A stretch of 24,897 nucleotides of DNA from a virus. Taxonomy: Duplodnaviria; Heunggongvirae; Uroviricota; Caudoviricetes. A program made the translations under genes and the position numbers. The notes beneath the pieces are model-generated. The model saw nothing but the letters and a program-made list of their open reading frames with translations. It did no database searches and was not told the DNA's origin. The stretch is taken from IMG/VR virus record IMGVR_UViG_2547132278_000021, positions 1 through 24,897 of that record. One strand, given 5' to 3'. The number at the start of each line of letters is the position of its first letter. Position 1 is the first letter of the stretch. Shown here one piece after another: positions 6,432-18,827 of the stretch.

Positions 6432-6728
6432 TCACTCCTGTTCACTGGCCTCTTTGGCCATCTTCAAATACTGTTCAGGGCAATGCGCCATAACGCGCTG
6501 AAACAGTTCCAGCGCCAGATTGCGTTGCCCCTCATTAAATGCCATTGCCATAGCATCCATCGGAGAGATAGCGGAAAACACCCGGCCTTTCTCCAGCACA
6601 GACCAGACAACGCGACGCCCCTGTTCACTGCTCATGACAAAGCGAATGTCATCAATTTCACGCTGTGCCATGTCACGTTGCTTACGGGCGTTTTCTTCTT
6701 TCAGTTGATCGTCCTCGTAATCTGTCAT
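6432..6728 (-). CDS. Hypothetical 98-aa protein between portal and scaffold
   Basis: ATG 6728-6726 overlaps the portal stop (ATGA coupling); charged helical protein. Confidence 0.55.
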   Translation of the reverse strand: MTDYEDDQLKEENARKQRDMAQREIDDIRFVMSSEQGRRVVWSVLEKGRVFSAISPMDAMAMAFNEGQRNLALELFQRVMAHCPEQYLKMAKEASEQE

Positions 6729-8653: not shown

Positions 8654-8730
8654 TTACCAATTTAACCACATATGATTTATTTATCGTAGATAGTTGACAT
8701 TTAACGCACAAATTATTACCTTTCAGGTAA
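8654..8730. promoter_or_regulatory. Operator-like site TTACC-TTTCA-GGTAA (8716-8730) with consensus -35 TTGACA (8694-8699) and a degenerate upstream half-site (8654-8668) at the cassette spacing
   Basis: Perfect 15-bp dyad identical in form to the immunity-region operators. Flank AAATTATTACC matches the flank of the pL-like proximal operator. Transcription direction not resolved. Confidence 0.45.
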
Positions 8731-9052
8731 GCAAAGAGTTCATTCCGGTTATTAACCTGACTGGCTTGTCGTTAAATTGAACAGGTGGAGTGAGCTTTTA
8801 TTTTGAGCAGTACGGCGTATGGCACATGCGCCGATAGCGGTCTGGATACGTTTAAGGGGCACCCTCCCTTGCTCGGGCAAACGAACCAGGTAGCCGGAAT
8901 GTGCAAGTCGAGCGGTTTTATTCCGCGCACGGGGATTCACCATCCCGGCGATTTGGTGTGACGCCTCGGAAGAGACGAGGGTACAACGATGAGAGCATTT
9001 ATGGAGCCGCGACAAAGTGTGGCGCCTTAACAGGCTAAGTGCTCTCAGCGTT

Positions 9053-9129
9053 GTGGCATTAGCTCAGTTGGACAGAGCAACCGCCTTCTAAGCGGTTGGT
9101 CGCAGGTTCGAATCCTGCATGCCACGCCA
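9053..9129 (+). tRNA. tRNA-Arg (anticodon TCT, decodes AGA)
   Basis: 77-nt cloverleaf folded by hand: acceptor GTGGCAT/ATGCCAC, D stem GCTC/GAGC, anticodon stem ACCGC/GCGGT with loop CTTCTAA (U33, TCT, A37), T arm GCAGG-TTCGAAT-CCTGC, discriminator G, encoded CCA. Confidence 0.9.
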
Positions 9130-9172
9130 GAATCACGCCTAAGGACCGTGATGCCAGAAGTTCCAGGTGCTT

Positions 9173-9214
9173 GGCGGTGATGGTTTCCCTTGAAGGACTA
9201 TCACCGCCCTTTTT
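9173..9214 (+). terminator. Intrinsic terminator downstream of the tRNA
   Basis: 9-bp stem GGCGGTGAT / ATCACCGCC followed by CTTTTT. Confidence 0.5.
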
Positions 9215-9292
9215 ACAGCAGGACGCCATTGCGATGACTTCATGCTGTAAACCCGTACAGCCACGGAAGGCATAACTCATTGCTTCCAGTTC

Positions 9293-9316
9293 GCCCGGTT
9301 CGCCGGGCATTTTTTT
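9293..9316 (+). terminator. Intrinsic terminator-like hairpin immediately upstream of the Gp49-like gene
   Basis: GCCCGG-TTCG-CCGGGC stem-loop followed by A + TTTTTTT. Confidence 0.5.
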
Positions 9317-9327
9317 AAGGTGAGATT

Positions 9328-9653
9328 ATGAACGACCAGCAAATCGAAAAAGAAATCGTTGAGAAAGGCAAAACCGCTCCGCGAGTTACGCCTCAATATA
9401 TCGAAAGCATCATTCTTGAAGAGCATTTCTTTACTGCTTAGACGGCATTCGTGCTGCCAATATGGGCGTTGGCGATTCATGGACAGCGCATAAATCTACA
9501 GACCTCCTGACTTTCTGCGTATTGGTACTGAAGAATGGCTTCACCGTCACCGGAGAGAGTGCCTGTGCAAGTCCGGAAAATTTTGATGCAGAAATTGGTC
9601 GGAAGATTGCCCGGCAGAATGCTGTAAACAAAATCTGGATGCTTGAAGGTTAA
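9328..9653 (+). pseudogene. Gp49-like small phage protein gene (Phage_gp49_66-type) disrupted by a frameshift
   Basis: ATG 9328 with AGGTGAG Shine-Dalgarno encodes MNDQQIEKEIVEKGKTAPRVTPQYIESIILEEHFFTA then TAG at 9439-9441. The adjacent frame continues from 9441 (DGIRAANMGVGDSW...LKNGFTVTGESACASPENFDAEIGRKIARQNAVNKIWMLEG) to TAA 9651-9653; the two frames join with a 2-nt offset. Confidence 0.5.
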
Positions 9654-9686
9654 TTGCTGAAGCAGAAGTTAAGCGAGCAATAACAC

Positions 9687-9700
9687 CGTGACATGTCACA
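9687..9700. repeat. 14-bp element CGTGACATGTCACA (perfect 12-bp palindrome GTGACATGTCAC), copy 1, downstream of terL
   Basis: Identical 14-mer recurs at 11952-11965. Confidence 0.8.
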
Positions 9701-9703
9701 AAC

Positions 9704-9730
9704 AGCCAGCCGATGAGCTGGCTTTGTTTT
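9704..9730 (+). terminator. Intrinsic terminator (possibly bidirectional) between the Gp49-like gene and the terL 3' end
   Basis: Stem AGCCAGC / GCTGGCT with loop CGATGA, followed by TTGTTTT; A-rich on the other side. Confidence 0.55.
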
Positions 9731-11839: not shown

Positions 11840-11884
11840 CATAACCACCGTGGTAATAGTTACCGTTGTGGTAATAGTACCATG

Positions 11885-11951: not shown

Positions 11952-11965
11952 CGTGACATGTCACA
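11952..11965. repeat. 14-bp element CGTGACATGTCACA, copy 2, overlapping the stop of the Cys-rich gene
   Basis: Identical to 9687-9700. Confidence 0.8.
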
Positions 11966-12299
11966 CTATTAATTTCGTTTCATGCCAGCCTTTAGTCACC
12001 CAGCATTGCGAGTCACCATTACACGGGCATGAATTAACTGGAACTCTCTCGCCGCACTTACCGCAACATTTTCTGCTGATCGATTTTATACGCCCGCGCA
12101 CGCGTGCATCATCCTGGCGGATCAGTAACGCTATATACTCACCAAATTCGTAAGGCGCACGCCCGGGGCGACGCGTGGCACAGTTACGCTCCAGCATTTC
12201 AATTTCCTGAGCATCAAGCACAATTTCCAGCTTACGCACACCAGATGCAGCTTGTCTGGCTCTCTGAGCGGCTTTGCGCTCTGCTGCTGATTTAGCCAT
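11961..12299 (-). CDS. Hypothetical Cys-rich protein (112 aa) with basic Arg/Ala-rich N-terminus
   Basis: ATG at 12299. N-terminus [24 protein letters not shown]-terminus [22 protein letters not shown] suggests metal binding. Sits immediately upstream of the palindrome, terminator and terminase genes. Confidence 0.5.
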
Positions 12300-12633
12300 T
12301 CTGATTTTCCTGCATCATGAGAAATACAATCATGGCGGCGCGGAGAGGTCTGGTATCAAATATTGGTCTTACGCCTTTTGCATCAACACACCATTCAGTT
12401 AACTGGTCTAAGATAGAAATCCTGTGTTTCTCAATAATCGGCCATGAGGCGCTAGGATCATTGCAGTAGTCAGGTAAATGGTTTAATGGCTCAAAAGTTG
12501 TATCAGTATTTCCGTAATACCATTTGTTGGTGTTATTCCCTGATGTTTCCGGTTTACATGCCCAAAGGCCTTTAAAAATTATGTCTCCTACCATTCTGTT
12601 AATTTCAAAATCACTTAACTGTGAATAGTCCAT
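12292..12633 (-). CDS. NinX-like (DUF2591-type) phage protein, 113 aa
   Basis: ATG 12633 overlaps the upstream TGA (ATGA) and follows AGGAGGTG. Family assignment from memory of the [13 protein letters not shown]-terminus; tentative. Confidence 0.5.
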
Positions 12634-13547
12634 CACTTCACCTCCTGCGGCGGTTCTGGTAGAGGCATCCAGTGGGTTACACCGCCAATTGGCTCATCGT
12701 CGTCGTACTCCAATGCGGCTATATAGAACCCGTCACGACGAGAATAAGAAATCCCGGACATTACAATGCCATCCGAAACAACAATAATGTCACCCGTTTC
12801 TTTCGGCATTCGCTCACTACAGCTTATCCAGGCATCCAGAGTTACCGGAACTTGTGGAATGGCTGTCTGCTCTCGAACGTCATTAGGCGCTATAGGTTCT
12901 GCTGCCAACTGACTGGCATATTTGTTAATGGTAACGATAAGCTCTTGCTCAGCCTCATCCAGACAATCACCGATACCTCGCCTGTCACCGTCAAAATCAT
13001 CGAAATCGGCACGAATCCTGGCAACCTTCAGGATTGCGGACAACACCTCACTAGGAATTGCCGGATAGTTGGTTGACGTTTCCGCGATTTCCCGAAAATT
13101 ATTGGTTGACGAATTCTTATTTTCCCGAAAGTTTCCGGACTGAAGCATGGCGGCGCGGCAGGCGTTCCAGCCAGCTGTTCGCCCAAGCGCGTAAACTTCA
13201 GATGGCTCAAGATAATCAATGTCATGCCCGTCCTCATCGTCGTTCTCAGGTAATGCAGCAGGTACTACCGGTACTGGCGGAGCGGCGTAGACTTCAATAA
13301 TCCCATTATCAATAGGCCATTCTCCATCCTTGAGATAGTCACTTGTGCCGTCAACTTGCTGTTCAGCAATGTGGAATGCACCAACTGGCTCTGCTGCCAG
13401 CGATGCCAATGCGATTTCCAAAACAGCAATATCCATTTTATATGTGCGGATGATGTCATGGTCGATTGTGCCTGGTATGCACAGTCTCTGTGCTTCAATA
13501 GTCTCCTCTGCGTGAGTTATTAACTGCTCTCTGGTAAAAGTGGTCAT
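12633..13547 (-). CDS. Hypothetical phage protein (304 aa) with C-terminal DUF551-like motif
   Basis: Ends ...[17 protein letters not shown], characteristic of DUF551 C-termini. Strong AAGGAG Shine-Dalgarno 6 nt before ATG 13547. Confidence 0.6.
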
Positions 13548-13557
13548 GTGTTACTCC

Positions 13558-13821
13558 TTAACCCGCAGTGCTTTCAACTGATGAGGGGAACAAAATCTTT
13601 TCATCAAACCCTGCATTCATATCATGAACAGCAACACACCAATCCACCGACGAACGATTATCAAGAGCCTCCATGATTTCATCCATGCGGCGTAGGTCAT
13701 ACAGGTAAATGTTTTTATCGCCAATGGTGTAAAAGCCAATTTTTTTCGGTGATGGACAGCGATCAATGACGTCCTGTAATTCGTTCAACCATGCCTGTTC
13801 TTTTTTTGTCAAAGTTGCCAT
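13558..13821 (-). CDS. Hypothetical protein (87 aa from internal ATG 13821)
   Basis: ATG 13821 preceded by AAGGAAAA; track start 13911 would overlap the upstream gene. Confidence 0.45.
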   Translation of the reverse strand: MATLTKKEQAWLNELQDVIDRCPSPKKIGFYTIGDKNIYLYDLRRMDEIMEALDNRSSVDWCVAVHDMNAGFDEKILFPSSVESTAG

Positions 13822-13822
13822 A

Positions 13823-14041
13823 TCAGTTTTCCTTATACGGATTAATTTTATTGTGCAGTGTGTTGAACGGGGCCCATACAACGTCGTTATACAATTCAAT
13901 AACGGGCTCAATTACTTTTCCGATTATCCAGGCCAGTAATAGCGGGGATATCGGTATCATCAACACGATAAACAGAATGAGAAACAAAAATTCTGTCGCT
14001 CTACTTTTTCGCGGATATTCTTTTCTGAATAATGTAGTCAT
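13823..14041 (-). CDS. Small membrane protein (72 aa, one predicted transmembrane helix)
   Basis: Basic N-terminus then hydrophobic FLFLILFIVLMIPISPLLLAWIIG. Locally AT-rich by eye, and preceded by a 143-bp AT-rich gap containing palindromes. Confidence 0.5.
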   Translation of the reverse strand: MTTLFRKEYPRKSRATEFLFLILFIVLMIPISPLLLAWIIGKVIEPVIELYNDVVWAPFNTLHNKINPYKEN

Positions 14042-14125
14042 TTCTTACCGCCCTTTCGGACGGTCTCCTGATGTTCTGAGGGTGCAGGAATCCCTCCGGT
14101 TAAGGATTAAATTTTATTTACAGAA

Positions 14126-14152
14126 CTGAATTTAATTATTCAGATATACGTA
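14126..14152. promoter_or_regulatory. Palindrome-rich AT-rich intergenic region upstream of the small membrane protein gene
   Basis: CTGAAT-TTAATT-ATTCAG inverted repeat (14126-14143) and ATACGTAT (14145-14152). Confidence 0.3.
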
Positions 14153-14184
14153 TCTGTAACCTTACGAACCTACTCACTGGATGC

Positions 14185-14658
14185 CTATTTCATAAAAATA
14201 ATCCAGTGGGTTTTATCGTTTTTTCCTGTTCGTTGACCGATAACAGGCTTTCTGTCGGTCAGTGCCAATATTTGGCGAACAGGTATTTGCGTTTCATTCC
14301 ATTTAAAAATCAGAACGCCGTATGGCCACAACACACGAAAGGCTTCTTTAAATCCCTGCCGCAAATCATCACGCCAGGTATCTTTATTCATCCGTCCATA
14401 TTTCTTTCTCATCCAGGCGTTATCACCAACACGTTCAAGATGCGGAGGGTCGAATACAACAACCGGAAACGATGCGTCTGCAAATGGTAATGCACGAAAA
14501 TCTGCTATCAGGTCAGGGCTAATTATCAGCCGTCGTCCATCACATAATGTGTGCTCTTCCTTTCTGATATCGCTAAATATCGCCCGGTCGTCATTCTTAT
14601 CGAACCAGAACATGCGACTGCCACAGCACATGTCGAGGATTGTTGCATGTCCAGTCAC
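14185..14658 (-). CDS. Small phage Dam-like N6-adenine DNA methyltransferase (157 aa)
   Basis: SAM-binding motif I-like ILDMCCGS near the N-terminus and catalytic DPPH (DPPY-type) motif in VVVFDPPHL. GTG start at 14658 overlaps the upstream TGA. Confidence 0.6.
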   Translation of the reverse strand: MTGHATILDMCCGSRMFWFDKNDDRAIFSDIRKEEHTLCDGRRLIISPDLIADFRALPFADASFPVVVFDPPHLERVGDNAWMRKKYGRMNKDTWRDDLRQGFKEAFRVLWPYGVLIFKWNETQIPVRQILALTDRKPVIGQRTGKNDKTHWIIFMK

Positions 14659-15188
14659 TGGTTGCCTCCTTTGCGAAGCTGGGAGGCTAACTCATCACAT
14701 ATGTGCGTCAAAGAGCAAAGTTTGATTGATGGATGTTCGCGCATCATCTCCACCCCCTGTGCCCGTACTTCAGCCAGGAAAGCGTCGGTAGCTGGAATGG
14801 GCTTTTGTGGTGATATGGCTATGAGAATTGTCTCAAGGTCTGGATCCGTTTCCGCTGTTGGTACCCTGATATAACCCATCTGCACCCCATTCATGATGAA
14901 CCTGCGACGGTCATCACATATCGCCTTTAGCCCCGCATTCTCCGCAGCCAGCACCGAAAACTTCTCGTGTGCCAACTTAACAGCCGCATCAGCCTGCTTA
15001 ATTGACTCAATCGCTTTCTGCTGGTCTTCGGCCAGCGCATTAGCACGCACCAGTTGCACTTCCAGTTGCGTTGCCAAATCGCTGATCAGCTTTGCCACAC
15101 TGCGCATATCAACGGCACCACATTCTGCTTTCAGTTCCGAAGCCATCTCATGCCCGGCGGAAACTAACCCTTTGATATTACTTTCCAT
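14655..15188 (-). CDS. Hypothetical protein (177 aa), coiled-coil N-terminal half
   Basis: ATG 15188 preceded by GAGGG; no recognisable catalytic motif. Confidence 0.5.
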   Translation of the reverse strand: MESNIKGLVSAGHEMASELKAECGAVDMRSVAKLISDLATQLEVQLVRANALAEDQQKAIESIKQADAAVKLAHEKFSVLAAENAGLKAICDDRRRFIMNGVQMGYIRVPTAETDPDLETILIAISPQKPIPATDAFLAEVRAQGVEMMREHPSIKLCSLTHICDELASQLRKGGNQ

Positions 15189-15249
15189 CTTTACCCTCGC
15201 TTATCCACATAACTTATTGATTACATTGATAACTAAAAAGATCGTCGAT

Positions 15250-15594
15250 TCAGAACTCTTCGATGTTCCAGCCACCACCTGCTTTCTTTGGTTTAACCGT
15301 TACCCCGATGATTCGGAACGGATACTGATCTGCGGCGACTTTGGTTTTCACCCTGGCGTCGTCGGTCCAGAAACCTTTCACTTCGTGTAGTTCCATCTCG
15401 CCGGTGGCGAGCATCACAGCAAAATCGGGCGTATAGAACGTGTTGTCAGCTAACCGCAGCTTGATACCCTCGAATCGATACCAGGCGATTTCCCCTGCAC
15501 GTTTACGCTGCTCAAGGTGCTGGCAATACGCAGATTCTGTTTTGTTCATCTGGCCTGTTTGGAGTCGACCAAGAGCCTGTATCTGTTTTCTCAT
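15250..15594 (-). CDS. DUF1064-like phage protein, possible PD-(D/E)XK-fold nuclease (114 aa)
   Basis: Motif YTPDF...EMELHEVKG is compatible with a D...E.K nuclease core. First gene after the internal promoter-operator cassette. Confidence 0.5.
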   Translation of the reverse strand: MRKQIQALGRLQTGQMNKTESAYCQHLEQRKRAGEIAWYRFEGIKLRLADNTFYTPDFAVMLATGEMELHEVKGFWTDDARVKTKVAADQYPFRIIGVTVKPKKAGGGWNIEEF

Positions 15595-15597
15595 GAT

Positions 15598-15674
15598 TTA
15601 CCTCTAAGGTAATTAAAAACCACATAAGACACGAAATCAATAGATCTAAGAATATTTTGTTACCTATCAGGTAA
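15598..15674 (-). promoter_or_regulatory. Internal promoter-operator cassette: operators TTACC-TCTAA-GGTAA (15598-15612) and GTTACC-TATCA-GGTAAC (15659-15675) flanking -10 TTTAAT (15612-15617) and -35 TTGATT (15635-15640)
   Basis: Two perfect dyads 62 bp apart centre to centre, the same spacing and layout as the pL-like cassette; 17-bp spacer between the hexamers. Confidence 0.6.
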
Positions 15675-15686
15675 CTATTGAGGCGT

Positions 15687-15706
15687 AAAAAAATGCGCTA
15701 TCGCGC
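15687..15706 (-). terminator. Weak terminator-like element after the P-like gene
   Basis: Minus-strand GCGC-GATA-GCGC hairpin followed by TTTTTTT; only a 4-bp stem. Confidence 0.3.
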
Positions 15707-15711
15707 TGGTA

Positions 15712-16512
15712 TTACTTGATAAATCCTGCCGCCTTTCCCCGCCTGTATTCCTCCATCAGCCACTGCGCCGGTGTTATTCCCCCAAGGGTGGCGGCGTTAG
15801 GCATGCACCCGAAACTTCGCCCTGGTGGATGGTAAACGTCTCTCCCTGTGTCCGGAGGTGTACTCATGGGCTCTGGCTTTGCCTGTATGCTGATCACCGG
15901 ATCGGGTATCTGCTGTCCGGAAGCCACCTTTTTCGCCCAATCATCGAGCAGCCTGCGCGCGTGTTTCTCAACCTCAATCTCGCTAAGCTGGCGCTGATAC
16001 ATTGCACGGCGGGTATCACATACGACCCAGTACATAACCGGATGTCGCCACGGGAATCTTTCGGGACCACCAGGATATAAACTTTTTTCCTTGCTGTACC
16101 GGTGAAACTCCGCCATCACATCGTCAATGGTGACGCCAAGAACCATCTTGCTGTCTTTGCACCACTTGATAAATTGCCCTGGCGACGGCCAGAACGGAGA
16201 TTCACTGGCGCGGGCGTGGCGCATACCAGCAGAAACCTGTTCACGGGTTCGGATCCCCCCTTCGGCAAACGCAGCAATCCACTGCTGTTTTGCAGCAACT
16301 TCCTGCTCTGGCGTCTTCAGGTTGGTTACCACTGCCGCCGGAAACAGTTGTTTCAACTGTTTGAAAAGGGCATCAACAAGCCTCTCTGCTGACATGTTCA
16401 CCACATTGTCATTGTTGACGTACTGATGCTCATAACCTGACATGCGAGAAAGGGCTTCTCCGTCACGGTTTTGTATCGCGGTAAAAACGTTGTTCACAAG
16501 AAATCCTCCCAC
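15712..16512 (-). CDS. Lambda P-like replication protein (helicase loader), 266 aa; start codon uncertain
   Basis: QWIAAFAEGGIRTREQVSAGMRHARASESPFWPSPGQFIKWCK parallels the lambda P core (QWVLAFRENGITTMEQVNAGMRVARRQNRPFLPSPGQFVAWCR, recalled from memory). Track start is a GTG overlapping the O-like gene 3' end. Confidence 0.8.
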   Translation of the reverse strand: MGGFLVNNVFTAIQNRDGEALSRMSGYEHQYVNNDNVVNMSAERLVDALFKQLKQLFPAAVVTNLKTPEQEVAAKQQWIAAFAEGGIRTREQVSAGMRHARASESPFWPSPGQFIKWCKDSKMVLGVTIDDVMAEFHRYSKEKSLYPGGPERFPWRHPVMYWVVCDTRRAMYQRQLSEIEVEKHARRLLDDWAKKVASGQQIPDPVISIQAKPEPMSTPPDTGRDVYHPPGRSFGCMPNAATLGGITPAQWLMEEYRRGKAAGFIK

Positions 16513-17357
16513 GCTTCAGGGCTGTTCCAGTGCGGAACGTTGTTATCAGGTAATGTTGATTGCTTCTGTCTGCTAATCTGCAGCCGCCTTGCCAGCTTCT
16601 GCTCCCACTGTGCCTGATGGTATGCCTTACCCTCAGCCATCCAGTAAATTCTGAACTCTGCAAGTTCCTGTGCCGTTGGCAGACTGTCCAGGTAGATTCC
16701 CTGCAATGAGCTTTTCCGAAGAAAGTCATCTGATGGCTGCCATTGTTCATGCATGACAAATTTGCCTAATTGCCCTGGCCCACCAGGAGGAACAAAGTTA
16801 TTCATCACGGCGTTGTTTGCGCCGGGGTCATGAGGCACAGAATCCCCGGTTTTTGTCCTGCTCTCCCTCTCTTGGTTAAATGACTGGTTATATGACTGGT
16901 TCTGGATCCCGTTTTTGGGATCATTCAACATCCCGTTTTTGGGATCATTCAACATCCCGTTTTTGGGATCATTCAACATCCCGTTTTTGGGATCATTCAA
17001 CATCCCGTTTTTGGGTATATTCCCGTTTTCGGGAACATTACCGTTTTCGGGTTCATTACCCCCTTCCCGGTTGCCTTTAATGTTCCCTTTTTTGGTTATA
17101 TTAAGAGAGAAAACCCGTACTCTTTTCGTCGCCCCCTTTCTCTCTCCGGTATCTGAAATAAGCCCCATTTTCATGAGCGATATAAGCCCGGCCTGCACGG
17201 TTTTTTTATTCAGGCAAGTGTCTTTAACGAGGCGTTCTATGCTGGGGTAGCAGAGGTTATATTCATCGGCTCTGTCAGCCATCGAGAGCAGTATGAGCTT
17301 TAATGACGAGCTACCTGGATCTGTCTCCCAGGCCCAATCTGTTGCATGTCTGCTCAT
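16494..17357 (-). CDS. Lambda O-like replication initiator (287 aa) with internal origin repeats
   Basis: N-terminal winged-helix-like region (LKLILLSMADRADEYNLCYPSIERLVKDTCLNKKTVQAGLISL), central PKNGMLND repeats encoded by the iterons, and a C-terminal domain. GGAGA Shine-Dalgarno before ATG 17357. Confidence 0.8.
   Translation of the reverse strand: MSRHATDWAWETDPGSSSLKLILLSMADRADEYNLCYPSIERLVKDTCLNKKTVQAGLISLMKMGLISDTGERKGATKRVRVFSLNITKKGNIKGNREGGNEPENGNVPENGNIPKNGMLNDPKNGMLNDPKNGMLNDPKNGMLNDPKNGIQNQSYNQSFNQERESRTKTGDSVPHDPGANNAVMNNFVPPGGPGQLGKFVMHEQWQPSDDFLRKSSLQGIYLDSLPTAQELAEFRIYWMAEGKAYHQAQWEQKLARRLQISRQKQSTLPDNNVPHWNSPEAWEDFL
16906..17001. repeat. Candidate replication origin iterons: four perfect 24-bp direct repeats (ATCCCGTTTTTGGGATCATTCAAC), with degenerate copies to ~17060
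   Basis: Seen directly in sequence. Each unit carries an ATCCC...GGGAT dyad. Location inside the initiator gene mirrors lambda ori. Confidence 0.75.
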
Positions 17358-17990: not shown

Positions 17991-18053
17991 TCACCCATAA
18001 GGTAACAAAAATCAAGGATAGTTACCTATGAGGTGCATTTACCTGTTGGGTAA
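17991..18053. promoter_or_regulatory. Immunity-region operator cluster (OR-like): TCACC-CATAA-GGTAA (17991-18005), TTACC-TATGA-GGTGC (18022-18036), TTACC-TGTTG-GGTAA (18039-18053)
   Basis: Three dyads in the 154-bp divergent intergenic region between the cro-like and repressor genes. Candidate cro promoter hexamers TTGTTA/TATTAT overlap the first site. Confidence 0.65.
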
Positions 18054-18108: not shown

Positions 18109-18693
18109 ATGAAAAGTATCCAGGACGTCCGCAGGCAAAATCTCAACGACTTGATCGACCGTGAATTCAATGGTGTTCAGACGCGGATGGCAGAAAAACT
18201 TGGAACTCAGGCAAATCTGGTAAACCGCTGGGCTCTTGGCAAGAAGGTTATCGGCGACCAGGTTGCGCGAAAAATTGAAGCTGCCGCCAATAAACCACGT
18301 AACTGGCTTGATATCGATCGCTCGCTTTCTCAAGAAGGTTTTCAGCCTGTCGGCCCGAGTGATATAGGTCAGCTGGCTGCTCACAACCTGGAACGCTGGA
18401 TGAGCGAAAGCCGCGACCTTTCAACGCAGGGAAAACTACACCGCGCATCCGGCGTCGCCCAGGTGACAATCAGCCGCCTGTTAAACAATGAGGTCAGCGT
18501 TTCCATTTCCACCCTGGAGAATGTTGCATCCGCATTCGGGCGTCATGGCTATGAATTACTGATTCACCCGCACGACCCTGCGACTATCAACTATGACCGC
18601 TCGCGCTACGCATTGTTACCCGAAACCGAGAAAGCAAAGATCGAAAGTTACATTGAATTTGTCATCAACCAGAACGAAAAAAGCAAACAATAA
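18109..18693 (+). CDS. Phage immunity repressor candidate: tandem double-HTH (XRE-type) protein with no LexA/S24-like cleavage domain (194 aa)
   Basis: Two HTH-like segments (TRMAEKLGTQANLVNRWALGKK and LHRASGVAQVTISRLLNNEV); divergent from the early-right operon; followed by a strong terminator. Confidence 0.65.
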   Translation: MKSIQDVRRQNLNDLIDREFNGVQTRMAEKLGTQANLVNRWALGKKVIGDQVARKIEAAANKPRNWLDIDRSLSQEGFQPVGPSDIGQLAAHNLERWMSESRDLSTQGKLHRASGVAQVTISRLLNNEVSVSISTLENVASAFGRHGYELLIHPHDPATINYDRSRYALLPETEKAKIESYIEFVINQNEKSKQ

Positions 18694-18750: not shown

Positions 18751-18827
18751 TTACCTTGCAGGTAATTTTTTTAACTCATATCTATTGACATCAAACCAGA
18801 TACGCATAATTATTACCCCAACGGTAA
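18751..18827 (+). promoter_or_regulatory. pL-like promoter-operator cassette: operators TTACC-TTGCA-GGTAA (18751-18765) and TTACC-CCAAC-GGTAA (18813-18827) flanking -35 TTGACA (18785-18790) and -10 AATTAT (18808-18813)
   Basis: Consensus -35, 17-bp spacer; the proximal operator begins at the last base of the -10; operator centres 62 bp apart. Confidence 0.65.

Follow-up and report, generated by a model that had tools for sequence, protein, structure and literature searches.

An operator-flanked cassette with pL geometry between the P-like and DUF1064 genes of a Uetakevirus prophage: a probable internal promoter

We analysed a stretch of viral DNA of 24,897 nucleotides (IMG/VR record IMGVR_UViG_2547132278_000021, positions 1 to 24,897; hereafter the window), which represents a prophage of the phiV10/epsilon15 type (Uetakevirus) with 92-98% identity to phiV10, phiv142-3, PAS61 and ZX5. 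Positions 15595-15711 are exactly the 117-nt gap separating the open reading frames (ORFs) of a P-like gene and a DUF1064 gene, both read on the minus strand. As judged from its sequence, this spacer probably carries an internal sigma-70 promoter, termed P_mid, which would be gated by the phage repressor Rep and would serve the nin-like block of genes behind a weak terminator. What the analysis shows directly is how the spacer is built, how far its motifs exceed chance, how well it is conserved and that the repressor is homologous to Rep. An initial annotation, made from the letters of the window, had placed a repressor-type promoter between these two genes, and this location was confirmed to the base.

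The spacer contains two copies of a palindrome, TTACC-N5-GGTAA, termed op1 (upstream) and op2 (downstream). In the whole window the palindrome is perfect at 8716, 11860, 15598, 15660, 18039, 18751 and 18813 and carries one mismatch at 11842, 17654 and 17991. All seven perfect copies fall in regulatory gaps. The core TACC-N5-GGTA was observed eight times against 0.13 expected in the window, and none of 100 shuffles reached eight. In the spacer, the centres of op1 and op2 lie 62 bp apart, or about 5.9 helical turns, and so do those of the two operators of the pL cassette. At pL, the gap from op1 to the -35 element is 19 nt, the spacer between the -35 and -10 elements is 17 nt, and the -10 element ends on the first T of op2. 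All these spacings recur in the spacer cassette (Table 1), which had been described as of the same design as pL, and the two cassettes are identical at 45/77 positions, including ATCTATTGA. The predicted transcription start, near 15605, falls on the centre of op2 and about 7 nt past the -10 element. The right half of op2 (GAGG, 15604-15601) doubles as the Shine-Dalgarno sequence of the DUF1064 gene, with op2 followed by atc and then by the start codon ATG at 15594. The AAAATAT block at 15658-15652 is possibly an UP-like element.

To rank the promoter, a crude sigma-70 matrix was applied to 49,742 positions. It placed pL second, pR third and the spacer promoter 25th (top 0.05%). Such a rank would be ordinary for a search of the whole window, yet it is significant here because the spacer promoter was scored at one offset only, the one predicted from pL. 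Its hexamers match the consensus at 9/12 positions in total. The cassette is almost certainly controlled by Rep.

The expected ligand of op1 and op2 is the product of the repressor gene of the window. This protein matches PDB entry 5D50_A over residues 1-190 (E 3.5e-42), its Pfam matches are to helix-turn-helix (HTH) families only, and it can be aligned over its full length with Rep of SPC32H and epsilon15, at about 43% identity. On these grounds it belongs to the Rep family, which is defined by an N-terminal HTH, a middle dimerisation domain and a C-terminal domain for tetramerisation and binding of the antirepressor Ant. Rep is a tetramer of two dimers that binds palindromic DNA and is disassembled by tetrameric Ant (PMC9638917; PMC9986798). 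One Rep tetramer is enough for repression (PMC9638917), and the C-terminal tetramerisation domain has a fold associated with DNA looping, while the mechanism of repression by Rep 'has not been extensively characterized' (PMC9986798). The recognition helix NLVNRW is invariant across the repressor groups, and all full-length Rep homologues keep TTACC half-sites; the half-sites are equal in all groups because this helix is invariant. Relatives that share only the N-terminal domain and have other helices show no such palindromes, which gives weak support, of the presence/absence kind only. In SPC32H the ant gene adjoins the tailspike gene, and the equivalent position lies outside the window. A plus-strand gene at 9328-9653 was considered as an antirepressor and rejected, as it is Acb4-like rather than Ant.

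We then compared the cassette across phages and bacterial genomes. With the Rep protein as sole bait, phage records formed four groups, at about 99%, 77%, 45% and 43% identity. Phages phiV10, Tyrion, BUCT554, BUCT711, epsilon15 and SPC32H carry the same parts in the same order, with op1 and op2 62 bp apart in each (6/6); the SPC32H operators are at 35972 and 36034. The neighbours of the cassette are swapped. A lambda-P protein, a DnaT-like protein or another replication protein is encoded upstream and a DUF1064 or RuvC-type protein downstream (Tyrion and epsilon15 have a RuvC-type resolvase in place of the DUF1064 gene), and all combinations occur. The operator pair was likewise present in all six bacterial genomes ascertained through Rep, namely Superficieibacter, Erwinia, Klebsiella, two Citrobacter and Scandinavium. 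The arrangement was thus seen in each repressor group and each host genus that was examined. In the Scandinavium sp. locus (L133) the operators are 61 bp apart both at pL and in the spacer cassette (2561/2622 and 6640/6701), and the spacer between -35 and -10 is 16 nt in both. Gene conversion between the cassettes of a single genome, or their concerted change, may lie behind these matched values. At pL of Klebsiella pneumoniae (L131) the distance is 63 bp (6636/6699), since the gap upstream of the -35 element is 20 nt. The tolerated indels therefore preserve a legal promoter spacer of 16-17 nt.

When viral contigs were scanned for precisely this geometry, at least 120 were returned, with at least 80 copies of the spacer type (at least 70 of them distinct) and at least 77 copies of the pL type. 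The operator and TTGA columns of this set are fixed by the search pattern and were not counted as conservation. Among the contigs listed, copies of the two types often point in opposite directions at a distance of about 3 kb, like those of the window. Re-sampling through pL alone gave 39 viral loci, and 29/39 carry the GCGC hairpin and the T7 run. Both operators are perfect and 62 bp apart in 27 of these hairpin loci; one further locus has a single mismatch, and one (L065) has tandem operators. Several of the other 10 loci belong to a fifth group, in which a non-homologous hairpin precedes the same cassette. A footprint was read from 34 distinct sequences that had not been ascertained through the operator/promoter pattern; their hairpin and T7 columns are fixed by the method used to locate the spacer and were not counted. 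In this set each operator keeps its ten half-site bases essentially unchanged, and the 5-nt centres vary (identity 0.51-0.74). The TTGA of the -35 element is invariant, and the -10 element is always T[T/A]AAT (TTTAAT in 20 sequences, TTAAAT in 13 and ATAAAT in one). The linker between the T-run and op1 varies in sequence (identity 0.74, no invariant column) and is 12 nt long in nearly all sequences. Of 5,426 complete E. coli genomes, 529 (about 10%) carry the junction of P-like gene, spacer and DUF1064 gene (window 15400-15900), none of them at 99% identity or above; the host of the window is therefore absent from this set or belongs to a slightly different lineage.

Part of this element had been annotated before. 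The epsilon15 RefSeq record (NC_004775.2) marks protein_bind features 'repressor, lysogeny' at seven places: before terS, in the gap between terL and portal, before the tailspike gene, three times at OL, and at 35906-35922. The last lies in the gap between the replication and resolvase genes and is the homologue of op1. The phiV10 RefSeq record marks the spacer hairpin as a putative rho-independent terminator. Among the records examined, including these two, op2, the promoter hexamers and the geometric identity with pL are unmarked, and the ZX5 paper maps no operators. We conclude that the cassette is real, genus-wide, very common and largely known, its central element being already annotated in a reference genome.

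From these observations we infer occupancy of op1 and op2 by Rep, looping, promoter activity and terminator activity, which could be combined as follows. In the lysogen, Rep on op2, centred on +1 and abutting the -10 element, would exclude RNA polymerase. One Rep tetramer probably holds op1 and op2 together and loops out the promoter, as at pL; it could span both sites because 62 bp, at about 5.9 turns, places them on the same helical face. Bound Rep would also block polymerases arriving from pR. Upon induction, disassembly of Rep by Ant would allow P_mid to fire, so that the resolvase analogue, the methyltransferase, NinX and the putative regulator would be transcribed. The weak terminator is probably also read through, which would add to this transcription. 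The map position of lambda tR2 would then be passed by re-initiation and not by antitermination of the N type. Re-initiation, perhaps with leaky read-through, may replace antitermination here, since no N-like protein was found in the ORFs scanned. The proposal in the initial annotation of an independently repressed unit holds insofar as palindromes of the OR/OL type surround a conserved pair of -35 and -10 elements. Read-through from pR, which that annotation set aside, is likely to contribute after induction, since the hairpin is weak.

The weakness of that terminator, also part of the initial annotation, was borne out by folding. The hairpin, whose stem is 4 bp long, has a folding energy of -6.5 to -8.4 kcal/mol (-8.4 for the RNA fold of a 34-nt context; z-score -2.7 in the window), compared with about -15 kcal/mol for the cro, cI and late-leader terminators. 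A stricter terminator scan, which asks for a 5-bp stem, did not call it. Across the six Rep-ascertained phages the GCGC stems are kept while the loop varies (GATA, AGCA, GGCA, AGTA, GGAA), and T7 is invariant in their alignment. In the window an operator lies 11-13 nt past the T-run at every terminator of a regulatory junction, that is, after the P-like gene, cro, cI and the late leader. The terminator-then-operator design is therefore not special to the spacer. We tentatively consider, as a possibility that we hold to be doubtful, that the hairpin and U7 with op1 at a fixed 12 nt form a repressor-dependent conditional terminator. RNA polymerase would be halted by op1-bound Rep at a point where the polymerase active site is on the U-tract. 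Termination would thus be efficient in the lysogen and become leaky after removal of Rep by the antirepressor. In roadblock experiments, the polymerase halts roughly 13-14 bp short of the bound protein. With a linker of 12 nt, the 3' end would therefore fall on the U-tract.

Several observations weigh against P_mid as a repressed promoter behind a terminator. About 24 other positions in the window equal or exceed the matrix score of the spacer promoter. Its -10 element, TTTAAT, has T and not the near-universal A at position 2, for which reason a consensus scan omitted the promoter. 'Complete promoter-operator cassette', as the initial annotation put it, was slightly generous as regards the promoter, the -10 element being a 5/6 match that lacks that A. 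In the E. coli trp promoter (-10 TTAACT), a -10 without A at position 2 can work. A literature search found no transcript mapping or transcriptomics for Uetakevirus. A few relatives (L109, L095 and L011) have no cassette within 6 kb. The spacer of L065 (IMGVR_UViG_3300012195_000011), which lies about 3.3 kb away from pL, shares the hairpin, T7 and the 12-nt linker and continues with two tandem operators 18 bp apart and the ATG of a RuvC-type gene. The half-sites are identical in every repressor group, so covariation of specificity gives no support. As for the terminator, the 4-bp hairpin folds no better than shuffled sequence in several relatives, and its stems never vary, hence there is zero covariation support.

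Some of these points would also be expected if the spacer acted as a roadblock or conditional terminator only, with Rep stalling pR polymerases on the U-tract, no functional promoter, and the downstream genes reached by read-through. The atypical -10 element and its omission by the scan fit such a roadblock, as do the operators that recur just past the T-runs of the window, the fixed length of a linker whose sequence varies, and the L065 variant, which consists of hairpin, T7, tandem operators and ATG. Between the terminator and the ATG of terS stand two tandem operators, with no promoter evident. A roadblock alone, however, would need neither TTGA nor T[T/A]AAT, which are invariant at 16-17 nt over more than 34 distinct sequences in which neighbouring positions vary. 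Moreover, the centre of op2 falls on the predicted +1, precisely as in the bona fide promoter design of pL, and even L065 retains, by eye, a possible TTGCAA-17-AATTAT straddling its first operator. Roadblock function is also compatible with a promoter. We consider it unlikely that the spacer is a roadblock and nothing else.

Alternatively, op1 and op2 could be distal anchors that stabilise Rep at OR and OL, 2.3-3.1 kb away, in the manner of lambda OL-OR looping and without a local role. The tetrameric state of Rep, its looping-associated fold and the dispersal of operators over the genome would suit this function. Local control is implied, however, by a geometry that is exactly that of pL, by hexamers that are conserved and by the way op2 overlaps both the predicted start and the Shine-Dalgarno sequence; the distance from the pL operators to the cassette also varies among relatives (roughly 2.8-3.3 kb), and a single tetramer suffices for repression (PMC9638917). 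We regard the purely distal role as very improbable. Equally improbable is that the spacer is mainly a linker at which replication and nin-like modules are exchanged by recombination, or a decayed duplicate of pL without a current regulatory role. Upstream and downstream gene types do occur around the same cassette in all four pairings, and the 45/77 positions shared by P_mid and pL also point this way. A relic would decay, though, whereas the half-sites stay essentially invariant while centres and linker change freely, and in the fifth group the cassette persists although the hairpin before it is not homologous. That the spacer is a recombination junction would follow from its being a conserved regulatory element and does not compete with P_mid. 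Finally, AT-rich intergenic DNA often gives promoter-like hexamers, and the 24 window positions that score as high as the spacer promoter or higher illustrate this. Chance resemblance in an AT-rich spacer is nevertheless excluded: two perfect 15-bp palindromes of the OL/OR type lie where 0.13 core matches are expected window-wide, their spacing equals that of pL exactly, and dozens of diverged sequences retain the cassette.

Table 1. Features of the spacer cassette, the repressor region and the early-right genes of the window
Feature	Position	Strand	Remarks
Hairpin GCGC-GATA-GCGC, GCGCGATAGCGC	15706-15695	minus	starts 5 nt past the P-like stop codon
T7 run (U-tract)	15693-15687	minus	1 nt (an A) after the hairpin
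12-nt linker, T-run to op1	15686-15675	minus	
op1, upstream operator, TTACCTGATAGGTAA	15674-15660	minus	perfect TTACC-N5-GGTAA; centre at about -62 from the predicted start
A/T block AAAATAT	15658-15652	minus	directly past op1; conserved columns in alignments
-35 element TTGATT	15640-15635	minus	19 nt past op1; 4/6 consensus
-10 element TTTAAT	15617-15612	minus	17-nt spacer; 5/6 consensus; last T is the first T of op2
op2, downstream operator, TTACCTTAGAGGTAA	15612-15598	minus	perfect TTACC-N5-GGTAA; centred on the predicted start at about 15605
pL cassette	18751-18827	plus	op1 18751-65, TTGACA 18785-90, AATTAT 18808-13, op2 18813-27
OR region, three operators	17991-18053		between cro-like and repressor genes; starts 17991, 18022, 18039
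Repressor gene	18109-18693	plus	194 aa, two HTH-type domains; SPC32H Rep homologue; expected binder of op1/op2
cro-like gene	17954-17724	minus	first of the early-right genes named
66-aa gene	between cro-like and O/DnaT-like genes	minus	
O/DnaT-like gene	upstream of P-like gene	minus	contains four 24-bp repeats (probable iterons)
Four tandem 24-bp repeats, TGGGATCATTCAACATCCCGTTTT	16916-17007		within O/DnaT-like gene
P-like gene	15712-16512	minus	Pfam Phage_lambda_P, E 1.5e-56; stop TAA 15714-15712
DUF1064 gene	15250-15594	minus	first of the downstream unit; PHROG 190, 'Holliday junction resolvase'
Remainder of probable downstream unit	11961-15249	minus	177-aa protein, DNA methyltransferase, small ORFs, DUF551 protein, NinX, 112-aa putative regulator

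The unit that the spacer promoter would serve had been thought to comprise three genes, those for the DUF1064-like protein, the 177-aa protein and the methyltransferase. It is probably larger. The first strong minus-strand terminator downstream of the spacer is the late-leader terminator at 11911-11894, and on this ground the unit was taken to span about 3.6 kb, probably running through NinX and the 112-aa putative regulator. The latter, encoded upstream of terS, had zero matches in Pfam, NCBIfam and the PDB, so a Q-like role for it is speculative. The absence of an N-like antiterminator, remarked on from the outset, was upheld among the ORFs scanned with Pfam, PHROGs and NCBIfam, a scan that left some small ORFs outside and did not extend to nut sites. 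The first gene of pL encodes 53 aa, has no assigned function and no N-family match in the same three databases. Rfam gave no match within the spacer, and its only match in the window is a tRNA. Further upstream, the 24-bp tandem repeats in the O/DnaT-like gene are probably replication-origin iterons; calls of a terminator scan at 16916-17007 were rejected as false, as these positions are the repeats. In the OR region, the operator centres are 31 and 17 bp apart, 31 being half of the 62-bp spacing at pL and in the spacer, and OR1 overlaps the -35 element of pR (TTGTTA-17-TATTAT).

Related arrangements were noted at other regulatory junctions of the window. On the minus strand after the cro-like gene, a strong terminator at 17702-17683 (-15 kcal/mol) is followed 11 nt on by a one-mismatch operator (17668-17654) and, 17 nt past that operator, by TTGATC-17-CAAAAT (from 17636), which ranked 7th of 49,742 in the promoter matrix. 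By its sequence this unit looks like a second relay promoter with an upstream operator only. It recurs in other repressor groups (L095, L112 and L076) and is degenerate in epsilon15 and SPC32H. At the entry to the late genes, also on the minus strand and directly downstream of the gene for the 112-aa putative regulator, a promoter-like TTAATA-17-TAGATT (from 11972) overlaps a perfect 12-bp palindrome, GTGACATGTCAC (11953-11964). Past the terminator at 11911-11894, tandem operators (11874-11860 and 11856-11842) abut the ATG of terS. This entry recalls lambda Q/pR'/tR' and differs in having repressor sites behind the terminator. The palindrome GTGACATGTCAC is perfect at 9688-9699 and 11953-11964 and has one mismatch at 6665-6676, against 0.08 expected. 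Both perfect copies lie just upstream of strong terminators, and the sequence may be the binding site of a further regulator.

The best sigma-70 match of the window, TTGACA-17-TACCTT (plus strand, 8694-8730), is directed away from the late genes, and its -10 element falls within the operator at 8716-8730. On the minus strand a weaker match, TTGTGC-17-TACGAT (from 8711), faces the portal gene, and the single operator at 8716-8730 may control divergent promoters. Between terL and portal lies an antisense insert (plus strand, 8750-9730) with a tRNA-Arg(UCU) at 9053-9129 and a LexA-box-like CTGTAAACCCGTACAG at 9245-9260. A gene of the insert belongs to the N4 gp49/Sf6 gp66 family (PF13876), has weak similarity to the anti-CBASS protein Acb4 (PDB 9E4W) and is broken by a 1-nt deletion relative to the intact 112-aa orthologue of ZX5. 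The annotated 83-aa ORF at 9059-9310 (minus strand), which overlaps the tRNA, is probably spurious.

The closest known system is the Rep/Ant switch of epsilon15 and SPC32H (PDB 5D50/5D4Z), phages of the same genus with a homologous repressor and the same palindrome. They differ from the window in their DnaT-like and RuvC neighbours, where the window has lambda-P and DUF1064, and in a Rep to which the window repressor is only about 43% identical. The lambda tR2/nin region has the same map position, with a terminator after the P gene and before a nin-type block that leads to the late regulator and late genes. In lambda tR2 is overcome by N antitermination, whereas the window has a weak terminator, a promoter of its own that appears repressor-controlled, and no detected N-like protein. 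Tetrameric repressors acting on two same-face operators around a promoter are found at lac O1/O3, gal OE/OI and pLS20 Rco (operators 75 bp apart), and the Rep tetramerisation domain shares its fold with the Rco looping domain (PMC9986798). The loop proposed for Rep would be very short, at 62 bp.

Dispersed repressor sites are known from more distant phages. The stoperators bound by gp71 of mycobacteriophage L5 are reportedly asymmetric, 13 bp long, about 30 in number, orientation-dependent and located within operons. They resemble the window sites in being dispersed beyond the immunity region and placed to stop transcription into downstream genes. The window sites, however, are perfect 15-bp palindromes in intergenic gaps, number about ten per genome, and stand at unit boundaries, mostly associated with promoters or terminators, so that they are not stoperators of the L5 type, which are asymmetric and lie within transcription units. 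In the Streptomyces phage phiC31, the c-repressor binds conserved inverted repeats at multiple early promoters. There, too, one repressor directly controls many separate lytic promoters, rather than one or two master promoters combined with antitermination, although the repressor and the host are unrelated, the promoters are of another type and the sites are many more.

P_mid would account for a lambda-like order of early-right genes without a detected N in very common enterobacterial prophages, present in about one in ten complete E. coli genomes. The one repressor appears to silence every transcription unit directly, and each unit appears to restart from a promoter of its own. Pairs of TTACC-N5-GGTAA 61-63 bp apart around TTGAnn-16/17-T[T/A]AAT offer a portable annotation signature that marks the boundaries of Uetakevirus units. 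The arrangement predicts that the nin-like block, and possibly through it the activation of late genes, is under direct Rep/Ant control. If the conditional terminator were also true, it would be a simple natural case of a repressor tuning termination efficiency, and the whole prophage would be insulated by repressor-assisted terminators, each paired with a relay promoter, in place of a cascade that depends on an antiterminator such as lambda N.

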